The translations under genes were made by a program, and so were the position numbers. The notes under the pieces were generated by a model, which ran no database searches, was not told where the DNA came from, and was given only the letters and a program-made list of their open reading frames with translations. Positions 4,286-31,511 of a stretch of DNA of 64,000 nucleotides are shown here, in pieces. Source of the stretch: Candidatus Entotheonellaceae bacterium. GTDB lineage: Bacteria > Tectomicrobia > Entotheonellia > Entotheonellales > Entotheonellaceae. The stretch spans positions 64,001 to 128,000 of the forward strand of contig OZ250173.1 of assembly GCA_965238075.1 (NCBI GenBank), written 5' to 3'. Each line of letters opens with the position of its first letter. The first letter of the stretch is position 1.

Positions 4286-5446
4286 TTAGGATCTATCCTC
4301 GCTCCAGGGCGGCGTGTACGAAACGCCGTATTGCGACATCAACTCGGAAACCTGCTGTTCTGCCGCCAGTTCGCTGAGAACGCCATTGAGGATTTCACGC
4401 AGGTCATAGTCATTCTTGCGCACCCCAATGGCGACGTTCCACAGCAGGTTCGGGTCTGATACATACCCATCCACCGGCTTTACGGTGCTATCGGGGCGGT
4501 TTTTGAGCCACCAATCCATTTCCAGTGCGGGCACCAGGGCCACCTCCATATCCCCCTTCTGCACGGCCTGCAGGGCGTCGTGGCTGGATGCAAACGGTCT
4601 GCAGGCGTAACCTGATTGGAGAAGGACCTTTTCCGCCTGTGACTTTAGCGGCACCGCCGTCGTCCTGTCGGCCAACTCCATCACGTCCTGCACCTCGGAT
4701 GCCTGCTCGCCGCGTACCAAGGTATAGCCGGTACCGAAATAGGGCTCCGTCAGGATAACACGGTCGATGGCCTCTTGTTGAACCGGCACGCCCATGAACA
4801 TATCGCAGCGTTTCTGGACCAGCGAGAGGCTCAGGGCGCCCAGCACGCCGCCGCGCCGCGACGTGGCCCAGAAATACTGTGTCTTCAGCCCCATGCGGCC
4901 AGCGATTTCCTCGGCGAGCGCAATGTCAAAGCCGCCTGGCGAACTCTTGTCGGAGGCGGGCAACTGATTCGGCATGGCACAAACCGTGAGGACCCCCTTC
5001 TCTCTGGCTTCGTAGAGAGCGCCCTTATATTCGGTGCGCAGGTAGGCAATGATGGACCAGATGTTCATGGGTTGAACACGGGCGCCAAAAGCCCCCATCG
5101 GCGTGCCCGGGCGGCCGGCGACGATGGTTGCAAAAATGTCGGTATCCGATCCGCCCCAGGTCCAGACTCCATCCTGCAGATTGGGCCCCTTGGCGCCCTT
5201 GCCGCGGGTGCCGTGGCAGATGGAGCAATAACGGTGGAACAGGTTGTATCCTTTTTTGATCGCTTCCGGGTGGCCGTGTAGGGGGTTGGTAATATCCTGC
5301 GCCTGAACGGACGCGGGTGTGGACAAGAACAGTCCAAGCATCCCCGCGCAAAGCAGAACGCCCAAGCTCCCCGCGGTGAGACCCCAACGCATGATCATGG
5401 ATGCCAGATGCCCCGGCCATCTCTTTCCAGAAACCCGCTGCCTCAT
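4286..5446 (-). CDS. Cytochrome c fused to a XoxJ/MxaJ-like periplasmic binding domain
   Basis: CSICH heme motif and GRPGTPM in the N-half; LTVCAMPNQLP.S, GFDIALA and RCDMFMG in the C-half; ATG 5446 preceded by AGGAGG. Confidence 0.8.
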   Translation of the reverse strand: MRQRVSGKRWPGHLASMIMRWGLTAGSLGVLLCAGMLGLFLSTPASVQAQDITNPLHGHPEAIKKGYNLFHRYCSICHGTRGKGAKGPNLQDGVWTWGGSDTDIFATIVAGRPGTPMGAFGARVQPMNIWSIIAYLRTEYKGALYEAREKGVLTVCAMPNQLPASDKSSPGGFDIALAEEIAGRMGLKTQYFWATSRRGGVLGALSLSLVQKRCDMFMGVPVQQEAIDRVILTEPYFGTGYTLVRGEQASEVQDVMELADRTTAVPLKSQAEKVLLQSGYACRPFASSHDALQAVQKGDMEVALVPALEMDWWLKNRPDSTVKPVDGYVSDPNLLWNVAIGVRKNDYDLREILNGVLSELAAEQQVSELMSQYGVSYTPPWSEDRS

Positions 5447-5577
5447 ATCCAGACTCCCTCCTGTGTACGTGGTCTTCGACGTTCCCGACTGTGGCATGTT
5501 GGCTCTGCCAAGGTTCCCCTGCGAGCCAGCGCCTTTTACAGGAGTCGGCCAAGGGTGTCAAGAGCCGACGCCGCGCG

Positions 5578-8731: not shown

Positions 8732-10510
8732 ATGATCAGGCGCTCGCTATGGATCGCTGTTGCATTGATGTTGGTTGTGCCCTTTGGGGCGCAGGCAAAC
8801 GACGAACTTCTGGCTCTGCAGGATGACGCCGGGCAGTGGACCTTACCCGGCAAAAACTATTCCGCTAACCGCTACAGCACTCTCAACCAGATCACCAGTC
8901 GTAACGTCAAGAACCTGAAAGCCTCGTGGACGTTTTCGCTTGGCGTGCTGCGTGGGCAGGAAGGCGCCCCGCTGGTGGTCGGCACGACGATGTACGTGCA
9001 CACCGGGTTTCCCAACAACGTCTACGCGCTGGACTTGACCCGGGACGGCGCGCCCATCAAATGGGCCTATAAGCCCAACCAGAACCCCAACGTGCCCGCG
9101 GTAGCGTGTTGCGATACGGTGTACCGCGGCTTGGCCTATGCCGAGGGGAAGATCTTCCTGGCGCAATTGGACACCAACGTCGTTGCCTTGGACGCCGCGA
9201 CTGGCAGAGAAATCTGGAAGGTCACGCAGGGCGACCCGGCTCAGGGCATGACCATTACCGCCGCGCCGCTGGTTATCAAGGATAAGGTCATCACCGGTAT
9301 CAGCGGCGGTGAGTTCGGTGTGCGTGGCTTTGTAACCGCAAACAACATCAACACCGGTGAGCAGGTCTGGCGCGCCTACAGCGCCGGGCCGGATGCGGAC
9401 GTGCTGATCGGCGATGATTTCAGCTCGCCCTACGCCAGTCATCAGGGTGCCGACCTCGGCGTCAACACCTGGAAGGGTGATGAGTGGACCCGCGGTGGCG
9501 GTACCACCTGGGGCTGGTACACCTACGATCCCGAGCTCGACCTGTTGTACTACAGCACCGGCAACCCGGGGGCGTGGAATCCCACCCAGCGCCCCGGCGA
9601 CAACAAATGGTCGATGACCGTCTTCGCGCGTAATCCGGACACCGGCATGGCGCGTTGGGCCTACCAGATGACGCCGCACGACGAGTGGGATTACGACGGC
9701 GTCAACGAGAACATCCTGGCCGACCTGCCCATGAACGGGCAGACGCGCAAGGTGCTGGTGCACTTTGATCGCAACGGCTTCGGGTACACGATTGACCGGG
9801 CGACCGGCGAGGTGCTCGTGGCCGAGAAGTTCGGCGCTGTCAACTGGGCGACCGGCGTTGACCTGGAAACCGGCGTGCCCGTTCGGGTAGCCGAAAAAGG
9901 CACCCAGGCGGGCCGCAACAGCAAGGACATCTGTCCGGCGGCCATCGGCACCAAGGACCAGCAACCCGCTGCCTTCTCGCCGAAGACCGGCCTGTTCTAC
10001 GTTCCCACCAACAACATCTGTATGGATTACGAGGGCGTGCCGGTGAAGTACCAGGCCGGGCAGTGGTACGTCGGCGCGATCGTGCGCATGTATCCCGGAC
10101 CGGGCGGTAACCGCGGCGAGTTCATCGCCTGGGATGCCACCACCGGTGAGAAGAAGTGGGGCATCAAGGAAAACCTGGCTGCATACGGCGGCGCGCTGGT
10201 GACGGCCGGTGACGTTGTCTTCTACGGCACCATGGAAGGTTGGCTGAAAGCGGTGCACGCCAAGACCGGCAGGCTGTTGTGGCGGTTCAAGACGGGCTCC
10301 GGCATTATCGCCAATCCGATGACCTATCTGGCGCCCGACGGCAAGCAATACGTAGCCGTCATTTCGGGCGTTGGCGGCTGGGCTGGCGTCGCCGTGGCCC
10401 TGGACATCGGCCCCGAGGATCCCACCGCAGGGCTGGGCGCTCTCGGCGCCTTTGGCGATGCGGGGATGCACAGTACCAAGGGAGCCATGTTGTATGTCTT
10501 CGGACTTTAA
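8732..10510 (+). CDS. xoxF: Lanthanide-dependent PQQ methanol dehydrogenase XoxF
   Basis: ACCD vicinal disulfide, GGEFG, TGNP, HDEWDYDG (extra Ln-ligating Asp where MxaF has Ala); signal peptide; no mxaI nearby. Confidence 0.92.
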   Translation: MIRRSLWIAVALMLVVPFGAQANDELLALQDDAGQWTLPGKNYSANRYSTLNQITSRNVKNLKASWTFSLGVLRGQEGAPLVVGTTMYVHTGFPNNVYALDLTRDGAPIKWAYKPNQNPNVPAVACCDTVYRGLAYAEGKIFLAQLDTNVVALDAATGREIWKVTQGDPAQGMTITAAPLVIKDKVITGISGGEFGVRGFVTANNINTGEQVWRAYSAGPDADVLIGDDFSSPYASHQGADLGVNTWKGDEWTRGGGTTWGWYTYDPELDLLYYSTGNPGAWNPTQRPGDNKWSMTVFARNPDTGMARWAYQMTPHDEWDYDGVNENILADLPMNGQTRKVLVHFDRNGFGYTIDRATGEVLVAEKFGAVNWATGVDLETGVPVRVAEKGTQAGRNSKDICPAAIGTKDQQPAAFSPKTGLFYVPTNNICMDYEGVPVKYQAGQWYVGAIVRMYPGPGGNRGEFIAWDATTGEKKWGIKENLAAYGGALVTAGDVVFYGTMEGWLKAVHAKTGRLLWRFKTGSGIIANPMTYLAPDGKQYVAVISGVGGWAGVAVALDIGPEDPTAGLGALGAFGDAGMHSTKGAMLYVFGL

Positions 10511-17437: not shown

Positions 17438-17707
17438 TTCTGTTATAGCCCAACGGCACGGAACCTCGTCGCGTTGTTGTGCCAACTTGTTGGCGCGTGG
17501 TACGCTGTCGCCGTGATGGTGGTGCTCGTATCTAGCTAGGGCATTTTCTCCAGAGGTTTAACGAGTGTACGCCGCAATAGAGATGCCAGCCGTTCCGGAT
17601 TGTCCGCAATCGGAGCCCGTTCAGGTGGCGATCCAAACCCCATGTGCCTGGGCCATAACGTTCTCTGGACGTCTATAAGGCATTTGAATCTCTACAGGGA
17701 GGCTCAC

Positions 17708-18841
17708 ATGCAACATTCACTGAGACATCATCCCGTAAGAACCCTGATCGCCGCCGCTGTCACCATCCTGTTGAGCGTTTCCGCCTCAGCGTTCGCACAG
17801 GGCGGTTTACCTGGATTTGAGGTCGGCCAACAGGCCGAAGTCGAAGGTCTTCCACGGGTCATGCAGGAACTCGTCGCGCCGCCGTTTCTACCGCAGCACG
17901 ACCAGGTTGCCAAGGGGGGAGCGAAAATTGTCGAGGTTACGCTGGACGTCGTCGAAAAAGAGATGGAGATTGCGCCAGGGGTTTTTGTCCAGGCCATGAC
18001 CTTCAATGGCACGAATCCGGGGCCGATCATCGTCGTCCACGAGGGCGATTACGTCGAATTGACGCTCCGCAACCCCAAATCCAATACGATGCCCCATAAC
18101 ATCGATTTCCACGCCTCGACCGGCGCGATGGGGGGTGGGGCGCTCACGCTTGTCGGGCCTGGACAGCAGGTGAAATTGCGTTGGAAAGCGACCAAGGCCG
18201 GGACGTTCATCTACCACTGCGCGCCCGGTGGCGCGATGATTCCCTATCACGTTGTGGCGGGGATGAACGGGGCTGTTATGGTATTGCCGCGGGACGGTCT
18301 GACAAACGCCGAAGGTGAGTCGGTGCGCTATGACCGCGCTTATTATATCGGCGAGCAGGATTTCTACATTCCCAGAGACGGGGAGGGTAATTTCAAGCGT
18401 TACGCCAACCCGATGGCGGCGTTGAACGACACGATAGAATCCATGAAAACACTTCTTCCCACCCATATCACCTTCAACGGTAAAGTCGGCGGGCTCACCG
18501 GCGACCATGCCATGAAGGCGTCCGTAGGCGAGAGCGTGCTGTTTATCCATTCTCAGGCCAATCGTGATTCGCGGGTTCACATTATCGGCGGGCACGGTGA
18601 TCTGGTATGGCATGGCGGCTCATTCAGTGACGCGCCGGACACGAATCGGGAGACCTGGCCCGTGTTTGGCGGCGAGGCCGCTGCCGCGCTGTACACCTTC
18701 CGTCAGCCTGGCATTTATGCCTACGTCAACCACAACCTGATCGAAGCCGTTCTGCTTGGCGCAGTGGGTCATATTTCAGTGGATGGCCAATGGAACAATG
18801 ACCTGATGGAGCAAGTGGCGGCGCCGCATGCAATCGAGTAA
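17708..18841 (+). CDS. nirK: Copper-containing nitrite reductase
   Basis: HNIDFH, YHCAP...YHV..GM, HIIGGH, YVNHNL; signal peptide. Confidence 0.95.
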
Positions 18842-18969
18842 GCCGTCTTTCGGGGAAGCCGTAAGGCTGACACTCTGTTACAATGGTGTCGTTTGCAAGC
18901 CCCCACTGGGCTTGGAAGCCGAAGCGCTTCATGACCGCAACACCGAATGTCCGCAAAGGAGGTAGAACA

Positions 18970-19539
18970 ATGTCCAAACGCAAACGAGCAGGGCGTGCCT
19001 GGGTATGGCTCGGTCTGCTTTCGGCAACCCTTTTGGCGCTGCATCCCATGCACGCGGATGCGGCAGAAGGGCTGGCCCTTCCCCAGGGTATGCAGGCTCC
19101 GAGTCAACCCGCAACCCTTCCCGCCTTCGAGCTACCCGATCCCGGTGGCAACATCGTTCGTGCCGCCGACCTGCAAGGCAAGGTCGTGGTCGTACGGTTC
19201 TGGGCCACTTGGTGAGGGATCTGTCGCAGCGAGATGCCCTCCGTGCAGAGGGTACACGAAGCCTTCCCGAATGAAGATGTCGCCGTGGTTGCCATCTCCC
19301 TTGATGGCGGCGGTGTCCCGACGGTGCAGTCCTACCTGGCCAGACACGAGTACACCTTTCCCACGCCGGTCGATCAGAAGATGACGGTGGCCCGTGCGCT
19401 CGGCGCCCGGAGCGTTCCCTATACGCTTGTGATCAACCGCCAGGGCGTCGTCGTTGCCAGTGCCTCCGGACCTTTCGATTTAGACGGCGGCCCATTCCGG
19501 CAGTACCTTGCCGACCTGGCGGCCCAGCCGCGTAGCTAA
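18970..19539 (+). CDS. Exported TlpA/ResA-like thioredoxin, predicted selenoprotein (UxxC), 189 aa
   Basis: ORFs ending 19215 and starting 19234 share one frame; FWATW-TGA(19213-19215)-GICRSEMP replaces FWATWCxxC. Confidence 0.88.
19235..19254 (+). promoter_or_regulatory. Candidate bacterial SECIS hairpin
   Basis: TGCCCTC-CGTGCA-GAGGGTA, with a GT-containing loop 26 nt after the TGA. Confidence 0.5.
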
Positions 19540-19559
19540 CGTCATACAAGGAGATTCTT

Positions 19560-20135
19560 ATGCAGGCAATCCAACGACCCGGGCGGTTTGTAGCCGCCCT
19601 GCTGTTGGCGGCGGTGCTGGTCTGTGGCGGCCTTAGCTCTGCCTCGGCCCTCCAGGTCGGGGACAAGGCGCCCGACTTCGCCCTGGCCGCGACTACCGCC
19701 GATGAGGTGAAGCTATCCGACTTTATCGGCAAGAAGCACGTGGTCATATTCTTCTACGTGGGCGCCTTCACCGGCGTTTGAACGCAGGAAGCGCTGGCCT
19801 TCCAACTTGACTTGCCCAAGTTCGAGGCCGCCAATGCCCAGGTACTGGGTATCAGCGTCGATTTCAACGATGCCAACAAAGCATGGGCCGAAAAGCTCGG
19901 TCTCACCTATCCGCTCCTTAGCGACATGTTCCGCGGCATGTCGAAGGTCTATGGCACCCTTTTCGATGACCCTGCCCTGCTGGAACAGGAGGGCTTCGGG
20001 CCGGTCATTTACCGGCGTAACCAGCGGGCTTTCATGATCATCGACAAGGAAGGCGTGGTGCGTTACAACAAGATCACGCCGCCTCTGGAACTCGTTCCCA
20101 ACGATGAACTTCTGGCGGTACTCAAGGGCCTGTAG
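19560..20135 (+). CDS. Exported AhpC/TSA (AhpE/BCP-like) peroxiredoxin, predicted selenoprotein, 191 aa
   Basis: VGDKAPDF...[13 protein letters not shown](19779-19781)-TQEALAFQ reads in frame into LGISVD...YPLLSD...[10 protein letters not shown]. Confidence 0.88.
19796..19829 (+). promoter_or_regulatory. Candidate SECIS hairpin
   Basis: GGCCT..AACTTG-loop-CAAGTT..AGGCC; loop begins 28 nt after the TGA; alternative short stem GGAAG/CTTCC. Confidence 0.35.
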
Positions 20136-20208
20136 CGGCCTTGAATGACGCCATCCTCTTCCGTCCGGGGTTGGCAGGAACGGCTCGCGCCAGCCCCGGC
20201 GGTTGGAT

Positions 20209-21141
20209 TTACGCAGGGCGATGAAAGACCGGTAAGACATTCTCGATGTAAGCCTCAAACGCCTCCCAATCAATGGGCGCACGGAAGGCGATGTTCAATC
20301 CCTCAGCGCCCGCATCCATATACTCTCCGATACGATCAATGACTTCCTGCGCCGTGCCGGTAAGTGCGCCCTGACGGCGGTCGGGGGTCATTTTTTCCAG
20401 CCTTTCCCCTGCCCTTCTGGCGCCGGCCTCGTCGGCAGCCATGAGGAAATGCAAATTGACACTGCGTGAAATACCGGCGGGGTCCCGTCCAAGCCTGTCG
20501 CAGGCCAGCTCCAACTGTTCCATCCGTTCCCGGAATTCTGCCGGCGACACGTAAGGCAGGTTGAACCCGTCGGCATATTGTGCGGCCATGCGCGGCGTGC
20601 GTTTGGGCCCGCGGCCACCGATCCAGATGGGCAACTTGCCGTTAACGGGCTTGGGGCCACACACAGCGCCCTGCACGTTATAGTATTTCCCCGTGAAATT
20701 GGTCACCGGCTCTTCGAACAACGACTTGATAATCTGGACCGCTTCTTCCATCTGGTCCAGCCGCTCCTTGAGCGGCGGAAAGCCGTAGCCGAACTCGCGA
20801 AATTCTTCCTCGAACCAACCCCCGCCCAGGCCCAGCTCGCAGCGCCCGCCGCTGATGTGATCGACCGTAATGGCTGCCTTCGCCAACAGGCCCGGATTGC
20901 GAAACAACGTGCAGAACACCAGGCAACCGACCCGCGCCCGGGACGTCACAGCCGCCAACGTTGCCATGGCGGCGACGGCCTCGAAGCAGGTGTTTTCCCG
21001 ACGCTCGAGCGGGTTGGCATAGAAGTGATCCCACACGGAAATCCAATGAAATCCGGCTTCGTCGGCCTGTTTCCACAGGCGCTTCAGGTCGTCCATGGGC
21101 AAGTCCTGCGGTCCTGCGTGCACGCCCAGCTTGATGCTCAT
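20209..21141 (-). CDS. LLM-class (putatively F420-dependent) oxidoreductase
   Basis: ISVWDHF, R.PGLLAK...DHISGGR.ELGLG.GW, PIWIGG.G. Confidence 0.88.
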   Translation of the reverse strand: MSIKLGVHAGPQDLPMDDLKRLWKQADEAGFHWISVWDHFYANPLERRENTCFEAVAAMATLAAVTSRARVGCLVFCTLFRNPGLLAKAAITVDHISGGRCELGLGGGWFEEEFREFGYGFPPLKERLDQMEEAVQIIKSLFEEPVTNFTGKYYNVQGAVCGPKPVNGKLPIWIGGRGPKRTPRMAAQYADGFNLPYVSPAEFRERMEQLELACDRLGRDPAGISRSVNLHFLMAADEAGARRAGERLEKMTPDRRQGALTGTAQEVIDRIGEYMDAGAEGLNIAFRAPIDWEAFEAYIENVLPVFHRPA

Positions 21142-21371
21142 TTTGCTGCTCCTTTTGCATAGGCCCTGTGGGGAGGTGCTTGGACTTTGATTAGGTTGCG
21201 GTGCATGAGGCGGCGCAGTATAGCATGGGGTTTTTTGGGCTTGCGCCCGTTTGCAAAATGCCGGCTTCCTACCTATTCTGGGCACTTGTCGGCCAATATG
21301 TTCCGCGGCCAACGCAACCGGCGGTAAGCATCCCGCCACGAGAAAACGAAGCCTGAATCGGGGAGGTATGG

Positions 21372-22373
21372 GTGGCAACGTTCAAAGTCGTTACAGGGAA
21401 GATGTCGGGGTTCTTGGCGGATCTCGGCGGGGCGAATTATGAGATGGAGCGCGAGGCCCTTGAACCCATCGGTGCGGAAATCATCGTTTTGGATGCCTCG
21501 GACGAGGACGCCTTCATCGCGCAAGCCAAGGACGCGGACGCCATCATCGGCCGCGGCGTGCGCCTGACGCCGAAAATTCTGGCGGCGCTGCAGAAATGTA
21601 AGGTCATCGCGGGTTCAGGCGTCGGTTTCGACTACGTGGACGTTCCGGCCGCCACGCGGGCGGGCATTGTCGTCACCAACGTGCCGGACGTGTTCATCGA
21701 AGAAGTCGCCGACCATGCCATGACGCTGCTGCTTGGTTGTTGGCGGCGCCTCATCACGCAGGACCGTATCGTGCGTGAGGGCCGTTGGGGCGAAGGCCGT
21801 GAGGAGCTATCCAAGCACGCGCGCCTGCAGGGACAGACCCTCGGTTTCGTCTCCTTCGGCAATATCCCGCGCTTGATCACCAAGCGCGCCAAGGCGTTCG
21901 GCCTGCAAGTTATCGCCTTCGACCCTTTCATTCACGAGCACGTCATGCAGCAATACGAGGTCGGCGTCACGGGCAGTCTGCAAGAGTTGTTGCAAGCCTC
22001 CGACTTTGTTTCTATGCACGTGCCGTTGTCCCCCACCACCCAGGCCATGTTCACGGAGCCGCATTTCCGCGCCATGAAGCCGACGGCGATTTTCATCAAC
22101 ACCGGTCGAGGTCCGACGGTAGACGAAAAGGCCCTGATCAAGGCGCTTCAGGAAGGGTGGATTGCCGGAGCCGGCCTTGACGTGTTCGAACAAGAGCCTG
22201 TGAGCACCGATAACCCGCTGCTCAAAATGGACAACGTCATCGTGTCGGCGCATGTGGCTTCCGCCTCCTCGCGCATGATGCCCGAGGCGCGTCGGCGGGC
22301 CGGGCGTGAGATCGCCGCCGTCCTTCAGGGGCGTCGGCCCCTCTCCCCGATCAATCCGCAGGTGCTGACATAG
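21372..22373 (+). CDS. D-2-hydroxyacid dehydrogenase (CtBP/SerA-like)
   Basis: EEVADH, INTGRG, LDVFEQEP, SAH; atypical SFGNIP nucleotide loop. Confidence 0.85.
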   Translation: MATFKVVTGKMSGFLADLGGANYEMEREALEPIGAEIIVLDASDEDAFIAQAKDADAIIGRGVRLTPKILAALQKCKVIAGSGVGFDYVDVPAATRAGIVVTNVPDVFIEEVADHAMTLLLGCWRRLITQDRIVREGRWGEGREELSKHARLQGQTLGFVSFGNIPRLITKRAKAFGLQVIAFDPFIHEHVMQQYEVGVTGSLQELLQASDFVSMHVPLSPTTQAMFTEPHFRAMKPTAIFINTGRGPTVDEKALIKALQEGWIAGAGLDVFEQEPVSTDNPLLKMDNVIVSAHVASASSRMMPEARRRAGREIAAVLQGRRPLSPINPQVLT

Positions 22374-27545: not shown

Positions 27546-29171
27546 TTACAGGCCAAGTGGTTCGCCCATAGGATTGAACATACAGCCCTCGACAAAGATG
27601 TCGAAGAAATCCGGAGTGGTTTCCAACTCGATGTGTTCGATCTGAGGCGCCAGGGCTTCCATGCGTTGCCGCAGGTCGCTGTTACTCAGCATAAGGGTCG
27701 CGCCTTCCAGGGAGGCGTTACCGACTTTGGCGATGCGTTCGGTGGGCATGTTGGCGATGAAGCCAATGTCGATGGCATTCTCGACGTTGATGTAGTTGGC
27801 GAAGCCACCGGCCAGATACAGCTTTCGGATCTCGCCCAGCGGCACCCCGTAGCGCCGCAGCGCGATGTACTGACCCGAGAAGTTGGCCGACTTGGCCTGC
27901 GCCAGGGCGCTGATGTCGGCGCGCGACAACGACATGCCGCTGTCCGGCACGAAGACGAAGGCCTGCTCACCACTCTCGTAAACGCCGAGTTCGTTCATTT
28001 TGCCGCTGCGCCGCAGTTCTGCCAGCAGGTCGACGAGGCCGGAGCCGCAGATACCCTGAGCCGGCGTCCCGCCGATCGTCTTGCAGGTGACACCGTCGTC
28101 GCCGATGGTCACGGACTCGACGGCGCCGTTGTAACCGGGCATGCCGTACGTTACCTCCCCGCCCTCGAAGGCCGGACCCGCCGGGCACGACGCCGCGATC
28201 ATACGGTGACGGTTACCGACAACGACTTCCGTATTGGTCCCGACGTCCACCAGCAGAACAACGTCGTCTTCCTGGTCCAGACCCACGGCGAGCAGATCGG
28301 CCGCTACGTCGGCGCCGACGTGTGAGCTGATGAGCGGTCCGCCGTAGACGTTGGCACGTGGAAAAATTCGTAGCCCCAACTCCTTGGCTTTGACGTTCAG
28401 CGCGGTGGTCGCCCGCTGACCCGCCAGCATTTCCAGTTCGGTAACGGACTTGTAGGGTTTCTCGCCGATCGGCTGGACGTCGAATCCGAAGAACAGGTCC
28501 CGCATGGTGGCATTGCCGACGATGACCATCTCGTATATTCGCCGCGCTCGCACCTTGAGGCGCCGGCACATATCCCTTATCTCAAAGTTGATGCCGGACA
28601 AAATGGCCTGTTGCAGCTCACCCCGGAACGGCCCGCCGTCGTAGGATATGCGGTGCATGATATCGCTGCCGCCAAAGCGTTGCGGGTTTTCGAACGAGCC
28701 TGTGTACAGGATGTCGCCGCTTTCCAGGTCGACCAGATTCAGCGCGACCGTCGTGGTGCCGAGGTCCACCGCTAACCCGCAAATCTGACCCCGGTAGTCG
28801 TCGAGGCGCTCGGCACCGAAATACACGCCGTCGTCCCTGCGAATGGACAACGGCGCCAGCGGCACTTGGCGCCGGATACCATGCGTCAGAATCTTCGGTT
28901 GGCGCCGCAACACGGCAAATTCGATATCGGCATCGGGCTCGGCGATCAAGGCTTGGCAGGCAAGGCGGTACGGCTGGCGCAGGAAGCTTTCCGCCTGGGT
29001 CGGGGAATTGAGCGCTGGCATGCCGCGTTTGATTTCGACAATGCACTCGTGGCACTGACCGGTTCTGCCGCACGAGGTGGGCACGCGGACTTTCAAGGTG
29101 TCGGCGTAGTCGAAAACGGACTTGCCGGCAACGGCATCGAGCCGGTGGGAGTCGTGATACATGGGTGCCAT
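27546..29171 (-). CDS. ASKHA reductive activator of corrinoid proteins (RACE/RamA-like) with an N-terminal 2Fe-2S domain
   Basis: CGRTGQCHEC...LAC; DLGTTT, NPQRFGGSD, DVGTNTE, AGPAFEG, GICGSG. Confidence 0.9.
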   Translation of the reverse strand: MAPMYHDSHRLDAVAGKSVFDYADTLKVRVPTSCGRTGQCHECIVEIKRGMPALNSPTQAESFLRQPYRLACQALIAEPDADIEFAVLRRQPKILTHGIRRQVPLAPLSIRRDDGVYFGAERLDDYRGQICGLAVDLGTTTVALNLVDLESGDILYTGSFENPQRFGGSDIMHRISYDGGPFRGELQQAILSGINFEIRDMCRRLKVRARRIYEMVIVGNATMRDLFFGFDVQPIGEKPYKSVTELEMLAGQRATTALNVKAKELGLRIFPRANVYGGPLISSHVGADVAADLLAVGLDQEDDVVLLVDVGTNTEVVVGNRHRMIAASCPAGPAFEGGEVTYGMPGYNGAVESVTIGDDGVTCKTIGGTPAQGICGSGLVDLLAELRRSGKMNELGVYESGEQAFVFVPDSGMSLSRADISALAQAKSANFSGQYIALRRYGVPLGEIRKLYLAGGFANYINVENAIDIGFIANMPTERIAKVGNASLEGATLMLSNSDLRQRMEALAPQIEHIELETTPDFFDIFVEGCMFNPMGEPLGL

Positions 29172-29212
29172 GCAGGCGTCTTCCTATGGAAGGTCTGTTA
29201 AGTCCGCCTGCA

Positions 29213-29308
29213 CGTCATGCCGGGTTTGACCCTGGACCAAGGCCGGGACAGGCTTCGCCATCCAGCCCTGATCGGTATCACTGGAATCCGGCTGGCGCCG
29301 GGATGGCG
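29213..29308. repeat. Palindromic intergenic REP/RPE-like element, copy 2 (degenerate)
   Basis: CGTCATGCCGGGTTTGACCC is the near reverse complement of GGGTCAAGCCCGGAATGACG in copy 1; shares CAGGCTTCG. Confidence 0.5.
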
Positions 29309-29363
29309 GTTTGGGGGTAGTGGGGCAGGACATTTTCATGGTATGGGGTGATTCAGACTTTGC

Positions 29364-29606
29364 CTACGTTTCCCAGGCACTCCGGTAGTCGAGTTTGTCA
29401 TCGCTCAGGCAGATGAACAGTTCGCCTTTTGCGACGCTGCGGTCTTGGTTGCGGCAGCCGAAGCCGGCGGTGCAGCGGTCCTCGGCGTTCTTGTATGGGC
29501 AGCGCCAGGTTGACACCTCGCTGGCAGTGTTCGACATGTCCCGGAAGATCGCTTCCAGACGGGCCAGGCTCGCGCGGTACTGCGCTTTGTCTATCTGCTG
29601 TGTCAT
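29364..29606 (-). CDS. Small Cys-rich hypothetical protein (80 aa)
   Basis: RCPYK....CTAGFGCRNQ........C; GGAG RBS; inside the corrinoid operon. Confidence 0.7.
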   Translation of the reverse strand: MTQQIDKAQYRASLARLEAIFRDMSNTASEVSTWRCPYKNAEDRCTAGFGCRNQDRSVAKGELFICLSDDKLDYRSAWET

Positions 29607-29628
29607 GGCGTTCTCCGACCGGGGCTGT

Positions 29629-30378
29629 CTATGAAGCTTCCGGCATGGCCCCTTCGGCGATGAATGCCTTGGCGAGATCGACGCACGCAATGGCGTTGCC
29701 GCCGTAGGCGTCGGCCCCCATGTCGTCGGCGAATTCCTGCGTCAGCGGCGCGCCGCCCAGCATGATTTTCACCGTGTCGCGGAGCCCTGCTTCCTCGAAA
29801 GCCTCGATCGTCTTGCCCATATTCGGCATGGTGGTGGTCAGCAACGCCGACATGCCGAGGATTTCGGCGCCGTGCTCCATGACGGCATCGATGAACTCAT
29901 CGGGTTTGGTGTCCACTCCCAGGTCGTGAACCACAAATCCGGAGCCGCGCAGCATCATGATGCAGAGATTCTTGCCGATGTCGTGCAGGTCACCCTTGAC
30001 CGTGCCCATGATGATCGTGCCCATCGGCTCGATGCCCGACGCCGACAGGATTGGCTCCAGATGGGTCATGCCGGCCTTCATGGCGCGCGCCGCCACCAGC
30101 ACCTCGGGCACAAAGATGATGTTGTCGCGGAATTTGATGCCCACGATGGCCATCCCGGCAATGAGGCCATCGTCCAGGATGGTGTTGGCTTGGAACCCAT
30201 CGTCCAGCGCCTGCTTGGTCAGCCGGTTTACCTCGTTGTGCTTACCGGTGATCAGGTTGTAGGCGATGTCGTGCATGATGGGGGCCGATTTCTCGAACAG
30301 GCTCTGGATGTGATTGATTTCTGCCGGCTTGGCGACGTGGGCGAATTCCTTCTCCAAGCCTTGGTTATGTATCTGCAT
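29629..30378 (-). CDS. Corrinoid (B12-binding) methyl-carrier protein
   Basis: GTVKGDLHDIGKNL, MSALLTTT, GGAP. Confidence 0.95.
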   Translation of the reverse strand: MQIHNQGLEKEFAHVAKPAEINHIQSLFEKSAPIMHDIAYNLITGKHNEVNRLTKQALDDGFQANTILDDGLIAGMAIVGIKFRDNIIFVPEVLVAARAMKAGMTHLEPILSASGIEPMGTIIMGTVKGDLHDIGKNLCIMMLRGSGFVVHDLGVDTKPDEFIDAVMEHGAEILGMSALLTTTMPNMGKTIEAFEEAGLRDTVKIMLGGAPLTQEFADDMGADAYGGNAIACVDLAKAFIAEGAMPEAS

Positions 30379-30473
30379 GCCTCATGCTCCTTGGCGCAAA
30401 TCCCACCTTGGGGTGTATAGGAACCGACGCGGCGATTGTATCAGGGGGAACGTTGGCGTTCTACCCGGCGTCC

Positions 30474-31511
30474 TCAGGCAGCGTGCTCATGCGTCCAATC
30501 CCGCACGGCCTTCGGGATCTCCAGCAGGTTTTCCAGCTTGGTGGCCAGGGGGATGGCGCACTCGGGGGCAATCAGGTTTACCCCGGCGTCCAGGCAGCGA
30601 TAGACCTCCTGGCGCACCTCCTCGGGTCCGCGGGCGTAAAGCGTTTCGGGATTGTTGATGTTGCCCACCAGGGCGATGCGGCCATCGACGATGTCCATCG
30701 CCTGCTGCGGGTCGTTCTTGGAATCGAAGTGAAAGGCCGCCATGCCGGTGCGGGCGATGTAGTCCATGCGATCCAGGGTGTTGCCGCAGATGTGCAGGAT
30801 CAGCGGTACTTTCAGGCGCTCGACCATTTCCTGGTGAAGCTCCAGCAGGAAGCGTTCGTAATACTCACCGCTTACCAAGTCGCCGGTGGCGTGATCGGGA
30901 AAGGTCAGCGCGTCGGCACCGGCTTCGATTTGCGCCTCCCCGAACAGCACCGATATTTCTTTCAACTTGTGCAGGCAGAGCATGGTCGCGTCCGGATCGT
31001 CAACGGTCATCAGCAAAAAATGCTCGACTCCAAACACGTGGTAGGCCAGCGTCCACGGCCCCATGGTCTTGCCGATGATGGCCACCTCGTCGCCGAATTC
31101 CTGCTTGAGCATGCGAAGTGATCCCGTGATGGCGACGTTGTCACGGTGGTTCAGAAATCCGGCGGGCACGCGAATGTCGTCCAGACCCTTCCAGACGGGA
31201 TTGCTCATGCGCACGGTGGGCCAGTTGTCCTTCTCCTCCCACTGCATCTCGCAACCAAGGGCCGACGACTCCTGGATGATGGTGAAATACGGCATGATGG
31301 AGTCGAAGCCCAGCTCCGTGTAACCGGTGGCCGCCAGGCGAGCCGCCAGTTCCGGGTCGCGGCACGCTTCGGGAAACGGCGCGTCCATCATGTCCATCAA
31401 CTCCACCGTCGCCACATTGGTGGGATTGGAAACCGGCGTGCGGTCAACGGGTTTACCGTTCAGGGCGTTCATCACCCGCTCACGGGGAGTCATGGTCTCT
31501 TGGAATGGCAT
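30474..31511 (-). CDS. MtaA/CmuA-family (URO-D fold) methylcobalamin methyltransferase
   Basis: GP.TLA, ILHICG and APEC Zn ligands. Confidence 0.9.
   Translation of the reverse strand: MPFQETMTPRERVMNALNGKPVDRTPVSNPTNVATVELMDMMDAPFPEACRDPELAARLAATGYTELGFDSIMPYFTIIQESSALGCEMQWEEKDNWPTVRMSNPVWKGLDDIRVPAGFLNHRDNVAITGSLRMLKQEFGDEVAIIGKTMGPWTLAYHVFGVEHFLLMTVDDPDATMLCLHKLKEISVLFGEAQIEAGADALTFPDHATGDLVSGEYYERFLLELHQEMVERLKVPLILHICGNTLDRMDYIARTGMAAFHFDSKNDPQQAMDIVDGRIALVGNINNPETLYARGPEEVRQEVYRCLDAGVNLIAPECAIPLATKLENLLEIPKAVRDWTHEHAA

Follow-up and report, generated by a model that had tools for sequence, protein, structure and literature searches.

Organization of the locus

The window analysed here, a stretch of 64,000 nucleotides from a Candidatus Entotheonellaceae bacterium, contains two tandem genes on the forward strand, each of which forms one reading frame that is broken by a single in-frame TGA and is otherwise free of stop codons and frameshifts. 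The first gene (18970..19539; 189 codons, then TAA) encodes a TlpA/ResA-like protein of the thioredoxin fold. Its ribosome-binding site AAGGAGG, read directly from the letters, occupies 18956..18962, 7 nt 5′ of the ATG, and its TGA (19213..19215), when read as selenocysteine, yields U82 at the first position of a UxxC motif. The second gene (19560..20135; 191 codons, then TAG) encodes a peroxiredoxin of the AhpC/TSA family, in which the TGA at 19779..19781 corresponds to U74 at the peroxidatic position. SECIS-like hairpins are located at 19235..19254 in the TlpA-like gene and at 19795..19830 in the peroxiredoxin gene, both on the forward strand. The two genes are 20 nt apart, and the ribosome-binding site of the peroxiredoxin gene (AAGGAG, 19548..19553) lies inside this spacer, 5′ of the ATG; in all 12 orthologues the spacer measures 13–26 nt and bears a ribosome-binding site. 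Outside the module, the copper-containing nitrite reductase gene nirK is the upstream neighbour (17600..18841, forward strand; these are the limits of the listed open reading frame, the real start of which is probably further in), and a convergent gene for an F420-dependent LLM-class oxidoreductase (20209..21378, reverse strand), kept in this place within the genus only, is found downstream.

Under translation table 11, the pair appears as four open reading frame fragments (18883/18970-19215, 19234-19539, 19560-19781, and 19812-20135), and all four have been entered in a public collection as distinct small proteins, some of them misleadingly named. Since every gene caller splits both genes, the pair is invisible in annotation, as the original prediction had anticipated. 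Its reading of the region as two genes with one TGA each proved exact in coordinates and in motifs (FWATW-U-GIC and AFTGV-U-TQE), and the tight tandem arrangement with ribosome-binding sites and the absence of other decay, which it had also claimed, are equally evident.

Probable decoding of the TGA codons as selenocysteine

The selenocysteine machinery, for which a search had been proposed along with the prediction, was found in the genome: selA (607 bits) and selB (358 bits), which are adjacent to one another, and selD (319 bits) all score above curated cut-offs, and a tRNA-SeC with the anticodon tca is present. Use of TGA as a sense codon throughout the genome was considered and rejected because 8 of the 22 Pfam-supported open reading frames in the window stop at TGA; the stop codon of the TlpA-like gene is itself TGA in 4 of 12 orthologues. 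For each of the two genes, the internal TGA occupies the identical alignment column in all 12 family orthologues. A wide scan, covering one genome per species, returned 80 peroxiredoxin loci (74 of them with upstream DNA), and the catalytic codon of the peroxiredoxin is TGA in all 80, a count obtained with two seed peptides of which one, AFQLDLPK, is encoded within the hairpin region, so that the scan may favour selenocysteine forms and miss cysteine orthologues. This recurrence of the same column in the orthologues of both genes and in every peroxiredoxin locus argues that the placement of the TGA is not due to chance. The pairing of TGA with cysteine codons in homologues, another check suggested at the outset, is also observed. 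In profile alignments to solved structures, U82 aligns to the first Cys of FWATWCPPC in 3kcm and U74 to the peroxidatic Cys of AAFTQVCTKE in 2ywn. A cysteine paralogue of the peroxiredoxin in the same genome (..PFAFTGVCTNE) likewise aligns its Cys to U74, and among the 72 TlpA-like partners found upstream of peroxiredoxin genes, 66 have TGA and six TGC or TGT as the catalytic codon.

The hairpins lie within the coding sequences. In the TlpA-like gene, a 7-bp stem (19235-41 with 19248-54) closed by the loop CGUGCA begins 19 nt past the TGA; in the peroxiredoxin gene, a stem of 13 pairs (19795-809 with 19817-830), which includes an internal pyrimidine mismatch and a bulge and is capped by a 7-nt loop, begins 13 nt past the TGA. 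Bacterial SECIS elements as a rule have a G in their apical loop. Across 65 sequences, 99.1% of the cells of the TlpA hairpin are paired, with compensatory changes in two pairs (C-G to U-A in 11 sequences and U-A to G-C in two); its covariation score was reached by none of 500 shuffles, and slid controls were paired in 30–70% of cells. The peroxiredoxin hairpin is paired in 95.7% of cells across 71 distinct sequences and displays compensatory change in three pairs (21 cells; 0 of 500 shuffles), figures that for both hairpins are to be read in the light of a large overlap with conserved amino acids and of the relatedness of the sequences, which are not independent. Synonymous sites are frozen just past the TGA in 5 of 8 columns of the TlpA-like gene, against 0 of 31, and in 4 of 12 columns of the peroxiredoxin gene, against 3 of 60. 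The folding energies of the single sequences are unremarkable (z of −0.93 and −1.30); support for the hairpins comes from the alignments. An Rfam scan of 18800-20300 with E values up to 10 gave no match; Rfam may hold no bacterial SECIS model.

That the TGAs are true stops, whether in pseudogenes, through assembly errors, or in deliberately truncated products, has a probability close to nil. The four fragments yielded by gene callers fit such a reading; however, the same TGA recurs across all 80 independent assemblies, and the frame 3′ of it is intact and strongly conserved, with 29 of the 45 invariant columns of the TlpA-like alignment and 52 of the 73 invariant columns of the peroxiredoxin alignment falling 3′ of the TGA. 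The presence of the selenocysteine machinery and the conserved hairpins with compensatory changes that both TGAs precede also speak against it. Judged from sequence comparison, both genes very probably undergo genuine selenocysteine recoding at the catalytic position, as originally predicted.

Features of the two predicted selenoproteins

The TlpA-like protein has the thioredoxin fold with the W-C/U-x-x-C motif, represented here by W-U82-G-I-C85 in the context RFWATW-U-GIC, and in all 72 loci this U/C-xx-C is its sole pair of Cys/Sec residues. Among solved structures, 3kcm, a thioredoxin-family protein from Geobacter, is the nearest relative (E 7e-40). The best Pfam matches are AhpC-TSA and Redoxin, with a weak Pfam-level score for SCO1/SenC, and the protein falls under the NCBIfam cut-offs for ResA (84 vs 170), TlpA (75 vs 230), and WAxxUGC_long (78 vs 300). 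A putative signal or anchor segment covers approximately residues 1-31; cleaved and anchored forms are indistinguishable by the heuristic employed.

The peroxiredoxin reaches 111.9 bits with Pfam AhpC-TSA (PF00578; gathering score 26), and its best solved relatives are true peroxiredoxins (E 1e-33). Its active site consists of V-G-A-F-T71-G-V-U74, in the context GAFTGV-U-TQE, plus Arg156; all 12 orthologues share T71, U74, and R156, which also align with 2ywn, and in the wide scan Gly replaces the Thr in 3 of 80 loci. The Pro expected seven residues before the peroxidatic residue, which the cysteine paralogue of this genome has, is absent, its place being taken by I, V, F, or T in all 80 loci. 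Because the Pro of PxxxTxxC is missing throughout, the protein may not be a classical peroxidase. With the NCBIfam model PrxU (NF040737), it scores 59.1 bits against a cut-off of 270. Apart from the selenocysteine position, the mature protein is devoid of any Cys in 79 of 80 loci, this gene included. The predicted signal peptide covers approximately residues 1-30, ending in ..ASA before LQVGD. As had been claimed for both proteins, export seems likely: N-termini in which two to five K/R are accompanied by a hydrophobic 12-mer and small-x-small sites, classed as signal-like by a heuristic of the author's own, occur in all 12 orthologues of either protein.

Conservation of the pair across genomes

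Of the 74 loci for which upstream DNA is available, 72 have a TlpA-like gene directly 5′ of the peroxiredoxin gene, at a distance of 535–647 nt. In these loci, which belong to several phyla, the two genes stay adjacent with the same order and spacing, while all other neighbours vary. Two Nitrospinota loci encode a selenocysteine peroxiredoxin with no TlpA-like gene inside 3 kb. Closer to the organism studied here, the pair occurs in all five congeners and in 11 of 13 family genomes; one genome, G015, has the two genes on separate contigs. Carriers of the pair amount to at least about 70 uncultured species, chiefly Burkholderiales and Tectimicrobiota known from metagenome-assembled genomes. A Pfam scan of the 56 flank open reading frames (of 109) nearest the pair, taken from 20 diverse loci of the 80, revealed no conserved third gene; the neighbours at these loci are mutually unrelated and include TctC, ABC transporters, CoA-transferases, and others.

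Relation to known systems

Both protein classes to which the original prediction had assigned the genes are catalogued, as seen in the accessible portions of PMC9312934 and PMC13188914. The class “Peroxiredoxin (Prx), TxxU” has as its prototype PrxU of Eubacterium acidaminophilum, and a conserved PxxxTxxU motif is given for selenocysteine peroxiredoxins in the 2026 review (PMC13188914). The peroxiredoxin described here resembles this class in its AhpC/TSA fold (PF00578, 112 bits) and in a selenocysteine that follows Thr-x-x at the peroxidatic position but differs in its predicted export, in lacking both the Pro at −7 and a second redox residue, and in its low PrxU score (59 vs 270 bits). UxxC proteins are catalogued in the same portions as Prx-like thiol:disulfide oxidoreductases (PF00578) and as Thiol-disulfide isomerase-like / TlpA-like proteins (cd02966). 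The TlpA-like protein shares with both classes the W-U-x-x-C motif and the AhpC-TSA/Redoxin matches, whereas both classes are entered there as individual genes, with no selenocysteine peroxiredoxin as a partner. Operons of selenoprotein genes have been published as well; the examples in the available text of PMC13188914 comprise grdA-grdB, prdB-prdC, frhA-frhD-hdrA, Prx with SelW-like, Prx-like with AhpD-like, SAO, and Tso. The pair resembles these in that two neighbouring selenoprotein genes are presumed to serve the same pathway, and a combination of a TlpA-like UxxC protein with a TxxU peroxiredoxin is absent from those examples.

A cysteine-based counterpart is the ScsB > TlpA > PprX pathway of cell-envelope peroxide reduction in Caulobacter crescentus (Cho et al. 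2012, PMC3322552, as far as its accessible text goes). Common to both systems are a TlpA-type protein and a peroxiredoxin that are exported (by prediction in the present case) and the expected supply of electrons by a DsbD-family protein. Despite this likeness, selenocysteine replaces cysteine in both soluble partners here, the genes are kept in a constant tandem arrangement, and electron transfer from TlpA to Prx is predicted from gene linkage. PprX, moreover, is of the PrxQ type and possesses the Pro of PxxxTxxC, described in the same text as absolutely conserved, as well as a resolving Cys, both of which are missing from the peroxiredoxin described here. Beyond entries in the accessible review tables, no literature connecting selenocysteine with TlpA was found, and none was found on Entotheonella selenoproteins or on metagenomic Prx-like selenoproteins bearing signal peptides; subscription journals and the supplements of selenoproteome surveys may list the pair. 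The suggestion of an undescribed context holds at most for the conserved TlpA-Prx pairing, which seems not to have been described before, since the protein classes are catalogued and the cysteine-based TlpA-PprX pathway is published.

A proposed relay and its alternatives

As a whole, the pair is probably best explained as a compact cassette of two exported selenoproteins for relay-type reduction of peroxide. Its likeliest function, we infer, would be to act as a selenium-based form of the Caulobacter DsbD/ScsB > TlpA > PprX relay in the cell envelope. The conservation of the pairing (72 of 74 loci) makes the relay from TlpA to Prx put forward originally plausible; there is a reasonable likelihood that the TlpA-like protein is the reductant of the peroxiredoxin, and a peroxide is the somewhat favoured substrate. 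In the proposed mechanism, each mRNA would present a single UGA and, 13–19 nt downstream within the coding region, a conserved stem-loop that SelB would use together with Sec-tRNA(Sec) for selenocysteine insertion, and the N-terminal signal or anchor sequences would direct both products across the inner membrane. Sec74, the only redox residue of the peroxiredoxin-fold enzyme, would attack a hydroperoxide (H2O2, an organic peroxide, or peroxynitrite) and thereby be converted to a selenenic acid. Because the peroxiredoxin lacks a resolving Cys, Sec82 of the TlpA-like protein is proposed to attack this selenenic acid directly, forming a mixed Se-Se link. Cys85 would then resolve this link with formation of an internal Se-S bond in the TlpA-like protein. 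Re-reduction would fall to the single three-domain DsbD of the genome (659 aa; DsbD_N, DsbD_TM, and Thioredoxin_7), encoded ~2.8 Mb from the pair, with electrons from cytoplasmic thioredoxin; no gene for DsbD, CcdA, or ScsB lies beside the pair here or at the 20 loci examined. In its strictest form, the proposal would be an obligate extracytoplasmic Se-to-Se relay, in which a Cys-free, Pro-less one-Sec peroxiredoxin is recycled via an intermolecular diselenide with its UxxC TlpA-like partner, a chemistry that would withstand over-oxidation in the oxidizing envelope, the two genes being a fixed unit; this can be offered only tentatively and is rather doubtful.

The exported selenoproteins might instead constitute a thiol/selenol-disulfide reductase system for clients in the envelope, with a “peroxiredoxin” that is no peroxidase. 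Such a system could reduce Cys ligands ahead of the insertion of copper or haem (compare TlpA acting on ScoI/CoxB) or repair oxidized envelope proteins. The absence of the otherwise invariant active-site Pro from all 80 loci points in this direction, as do the weak SCO1/SenC score of the TlpA-like protein, the label of SCO1/SenC-type copper insertion factor that a public source gives to the N-terminal fragment of the peroxiredoxin, the copper enzyme nirK upstream in this genome, and the existence in Caulobacter of PrxL, a periplasmic peroxiredoxin-like protein of unknown function according to the accessible text of PMC3322552. However, the label is based on a fragment of 73 residues, the adjacency to nirK is not conserved, the peroxidatic-site residues Thr71, Sec74, and Arg156 are retained, and the top solved relatives are true peroxiredoxins, so that a reductase system is considered unlikely. 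It is far less probable still that adjacency reflects merely shared regulation or selenium supply, with separate partners for the two proteins and a peroxiredoxin for which DsbD or a small molecule serves as reductant. While the two Nitrospinota loci and the genes on different contigs in G015 would agree with such independence, the fixed arrangement amid changing neighbours across several phyla and the lack of a resolving Cys in the peroxiredoxin argue for a functional partnership.

The immediate surroundings of the pair had also led to the proposal that it is devoted to peroxynitrite and other NO-derived oxidants arising from the neighbouring nitrite reductase and has a functional link to a cluster encoding a PQQ-dependent dehydrogenase, termed a lanthanide-MDH cluster at the time. 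Indeed, nirK (TIGR02376, 474 bits vs a cut-off of 296) is on the same strand and ends 128 nt 5′ of the pair, and a PQQ dehydrogenase of the methanol/ethanol family together with pqqB, pqqC, and pqqE is encoded 8–10 kb upstream. A scan for terminators and promoters around the pair detected nothing above shuffle expectation, the spacer between nirK and the pair included, which has no terminator-like site. RNA libraries X8 and X9 each contain one contig that covers 18482-20300 at ~96% identity, extending from within nirK across both genes, and short contigs of a library from a second study (X18) span both genes; contigs of this kind prove neither transcription nor a single transcript, and their listed differences from the window extend to 19209, short of both TGA positions. 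In tblastn searches, G005 was the one congener of five in which nirK is again found 5′ of the pair, and none of the other loci searched has it there; the unrelated neighbours at the 20 diverse loci argue against a tie to the dehydrogenase cluster. Neither functional tie is upheld by these comparisons, and a pair dedicated to nitrite-derived oxidants is quite improbable.

Implications

If the relay is true, the cassette would represent a cell-envelope peroxide defence with selenium in the peroxidase and in its reductant alike. Its peroxiredoxin would break two textbook rules, as it has neither the conserved Pro nor a resolving Cys, and the pair would offer a natural system in which the advantage of selenocysteine over cysteine in an oxidizing compartment, and diselenide exchange between proteins, could be studied. 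Because public collections hold the fragments of both genes as unconnected small proteins, the use of selenium and the capacity to meet oxidative stress are under-counted in the lineages that carry the pair, which are mainly represented by metagenome-assembled genomes of Burkholderiales and Tectimicrobiota.

The gene pair and its decoding

The locus comprises two tandem forward-strand genes, each of which forms a single frame once its TGA is translated as selenocysteine (Sec, U). A TlpA-like thioredoxin-fold gene (18970–19539, 189 codons) carries its only in-frame TGA at 19213–15, placing U82 in RFWATW-U-GICR, and an AhpC/TSA peroxiredoxin (Prx) gene (19560–20135, 191 codons) carries its only one at 19779–81, placing U74 in GAFTGV-U-TQE. 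A 20-nt gap separates the genes, an AAGGAG(G) ribosome-binding site (RBS) precedes each of them, and no further stops or frameshifts occur in either gene when both frames are read through; coordinates and translation thus agree with the original prediction of two otherwise intact frames broken at the catalytic Cys. Both proteins match AhpC-TSA/Redoxin in Pfam, and neither reaches the curated NCBIfam cut-offs (score/cut-off: ResA 84/170; TlpA 75/230; WAxxUGC_long 78/300; Bcp 62/140; PrxU 59/270). Gene callers do miss the pair, as expected: public records carry the locus as four fragments of 81, 101, 73, and 107 residues (in clusters of 2, 33, 7, and 74 members, respectively). Rather than being set aside as pseudogenes, these are filed as separate proteins—some named 'peroxiredoxin' or 'SCO1/SenC'—and some are misnamed.

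The Sec machinery that this reading presupposes is encoded in the same genome (3.35 Mb, a single contig), which holds adjoining selA and selB as well as selD, all above curated cut-offs, plus a tRNA-SeC (anticodon tca). TGA otherwise behaves as a normal stop codon: it ends 8 of the 22 Pfam-supported ORFs in the window, and terminates the TlpA-like gene itself in 4 of 12 orthologues. In profile searches against solved structures, U74 aligns with the peroxidatic Cys of the Sulfolobus peroxiredoxin 2ywn (..AAFTQVCTKE.., E 1e-33) and U82 with the first Cys of FWATWCPPC in the Geobacter thioredoxin-family protein 3kcm (E 7e-40). A Cys paralogue of Prx in the same genome, 45% identical, matches the U74 site (..PFAFTGVCTNE..), and the proposed pairing of both TGAs with catalytic Cys is thereby borne out. 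A third AhpC/TSA gene whose frame contains one TGA (..HIFDFTGG-U-TEQ..) lies outside the window at 2601053–2601430 (reverse strand) of contig C1; its active-site Pro is absent and no obvious signal peptide is seen. TGA is carried by three of the eight AhpC-TSA matches in this genome.

The pair, with one TGA per gene, is present in all 5 congeners and in 11 of 13 same-family genomes, the two without it being 62% and 82% complete. Across the 12 extracted pairs, U occupies one and the same alignment column in 12 of 12 for each gene, and the spacer spans 13–26 nt with the RBS inside. The protein 3′ of the TGA is strongly conserved in both genes, as 52 of 73 invariant Prx columns fall 3′ of U74 and 29 of 45 invariant TlpA-like columns fall 3′ of U82 (12 orthologues each). 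That the selenoprotein pair is real, with both TGAs decoded as Sec, is well supported. The congener G005 holds a second Sec TlpA-like copy far from the pair (G005:C1:109277–109843; 72% identical, TGA kept). Single-TGA thioredoxin-fold matches are numerous in the family, the class, and some distant genomes (G006–G016, G022, G031, and G038), which suggests selenoprotein-rich lineages.

SECIS-like hairpins

A hairpin lies 3′ of the TGA in both genes. In the TlpA-like gene, the stem (19235–41 with 19248–54, + strand; loop CGUGCA) is nucleotide-identical together with its loop in 12 of 12 family orthologues, at protein identities as low as 46%. Over 65 sequences, 99.1% of cells are paired, with compensatory change in two pairs (C-G to U-A in 11 sequences, U-A to G-C in 2); the covariation score is reached by 0 of 500 shuffles, and slid controls pair 30–70% of cells. 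Across 71 distinct sequences, the Prx helix (13 pairs, 19795–809 with 19817–830, + strand) pairs in 95.7% of its cells and shows compensatory change in three pairs (21 cells), its score likewise being reached by 0 of 500 shuffles; the changes are mostly at synonymous third positions on both sides of the helix. Of the columns whose amino acid is invariant and whose codon is degenerate, those using a single codon (frozen) number 5 of 8 within 17 codons 3′ of the TlpA-like TGA versus 0 of 31 elsewhere, and 4 of 12 near the Prx TGA versus 3 of 60 elsewhere; since kin are not independent, these statistics are descriptive. Two points weigh against the hairpins: their single-sequence folding energies are unremarkable (z −0.93 and −1.30), and an Rfam scan returned no match to either.

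A second conserved hairpin (19834–19852; columns 62–80 of alignment A2) lies just 3′ of the Prx helix, with compensatory change at two pairs in the 12-sequence alignment. The internal Prx mismatch 19802/19823, both synonymous positions of Phe codons, switches jointly from C/C to U/U in four of the 12 family orthologues; one-sided changes occur in some sequences of the wider set.

Distribution and novelty of the pair

A scan covering 185,579 species, each represented by a single genome, used the peptides SVDFNDAN and AFQLDLPK as seeds and gave 82 confirmed relatives. The 80 kept are all titled metagenome-assembled genomes: 54 Betaproteobacteria (mostly Burkholderiales), 9 Tectimicrobiota (the lineage of the window), 4 Myxococcota, and remaining phyla with one or two entries each, some probably mislabelled bins. 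All 80 loci have TGA as the Prx catalytic codon; the scan may favour Sec forms, because the hairpin region encodes one of its seed peptides. Upstream DNA is absent at 6 loci; at 72 of the other 74, a TlpA-like gene lies directly upstream, its redox codon 535–647 nt 5′ of the Prx TGA (566 nt in the window). The two loci without it come from one Nitrospinota bin. The TlpA-like redox codon is TGA at 66 loci and TGC/TGT at 6, which form a single clade (L098, L099, L105, L108, L109, and L110; Myxococcota/Rokubacteria/Methylomirabilia by title) combining a Sec-Prx (GAFTPT-U-TREV) with SFGATW-C-xx-C and a Prx hairpin displaced by one register.

Reviews list 'Peroxiredoxin (TxxU)', 'Prx-like thiol:disulfide oxidoreductase (PF00578, UxxC)', and 'Thiol-disulfide isomerase-like (cd02966, UxxC)' as selenoprotein classes (PMC9312934, PMC13188914), so each gene belongs to a known kind. 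The selenoprotein operons named in the available text of the 2026 review are grdAB, prdBC, frhA-frhD-hdrA, Prx + SelW-like, Prx-like + AhpD-like, SAO, and Tso (PMC13188914), and the TlpA-like/Prx pair is absent from among them. Nor did literature searches pairing selenocysteine with TlpA or with Entotheonella return it. The suggested novelty therefore does not extend to the protein classes; it is the conserved pairing that appears undescribed.

Genomic context

The gene upstream of the pair, nirK (TIGR02376), encodes a genuine copper nitrite reductase; a dehydrogenase of the PQQ methanol/ethanol family, accompanied by pqqB, pqqC, and pqqE, lies further upstream. Among the relatives' loci compared, nirK lies 5′ of the pair in this genome and in G005 alone, so its adjacency probably reflects local history outside the system, and the functional tie once proposed to nirK and the dehydrogenase cluster is not supported. 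One contig from each of two metatranscriptome runs of the same study spans 18482–20300 at ~96% identity, and short contigs from a second-study run cover both genes; these contigs show presence in RNA libraries, not a transcript. Public runs X6, X18, and X19, which hold 17600–20300, are labelled 'sponge metagenome' in their records.

A few kb away from the PQQ dehydrogenase (8732–10510), a reverse-strand ORF (4286–5497) joins a cytochrome c domain to a family-3 solute-binding domain and might serve that enzyme as a fusion of electron acceptor and accessory protein. At 27546–31511, a reverse-strand cluster contains a RACo-type corrinoid activase together with a B12-binding protein and a URO-D-family methyltransferase-like gene, a set that resembles components of a corrinoid-dependent methyl-transfer system.

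Predicted export and a proposed peroxide relay

Both proteins extend N-terminally beyond their structure-aligned parts, which start at about residue 31 (Prx) and 49 (TlpA-like). In all 12 orthologues of both proteins, the extension runs from 2–5 Lys/Arg through a hydrophobic 12-residue window (mean Kyte-Doolittle 1.8–3.2) to small-x-small sites (e.g., ASA|LQVGD). The predicted signal peptides thus stand as signal-like N-termini, identified by an in-house heuristic that does not separate cleaved signals from anchors.

The mature Prx keeps Thr71, Sec74, and Arg156 and contains no further Cys at 79 of the 80 loci. A peroxiredoxin with one Sec depends on a resolving nucleophile from outside the protein. 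At all 72 loci with a TlpA-like gene, its product has exactly one U/C-xx-C pair, and across 20 diverse loci the UxxC redoxin is the sole gene travelling with Prx, the other neighbours being mutually unrelated and including neither CcdA nor DsbD. The genome itself encodes one three-domain DsbD, adjoining ccmH, ~2.8 Mb from the pair. At all 80 loci, the Pro site of PxxxTxxC is occupied by I, V, F, or T; this Pro has been termed absolutely conserved (PMC3322552), and PxxxTxxU is described as conserved among Sec-peroxiredoxins (PMC13188914). A published precedent is the Caulobacter envelope peroxide pathway (PMC3322552). From the missing resolving Cys, the constant UxxC neighbour, and this precedent, we infer the catalytic steps of a relay in which electrons would pass from DsbD to the Sec-TlpA-like protein, on to Sec-Prx, and finally to peroxide, with a transient Se–Se link presumably forming between the two selenoproteins. 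Compared with the Caulobacter pathway, the pair would represent a selenium-based variant with an atypical Prx active site.
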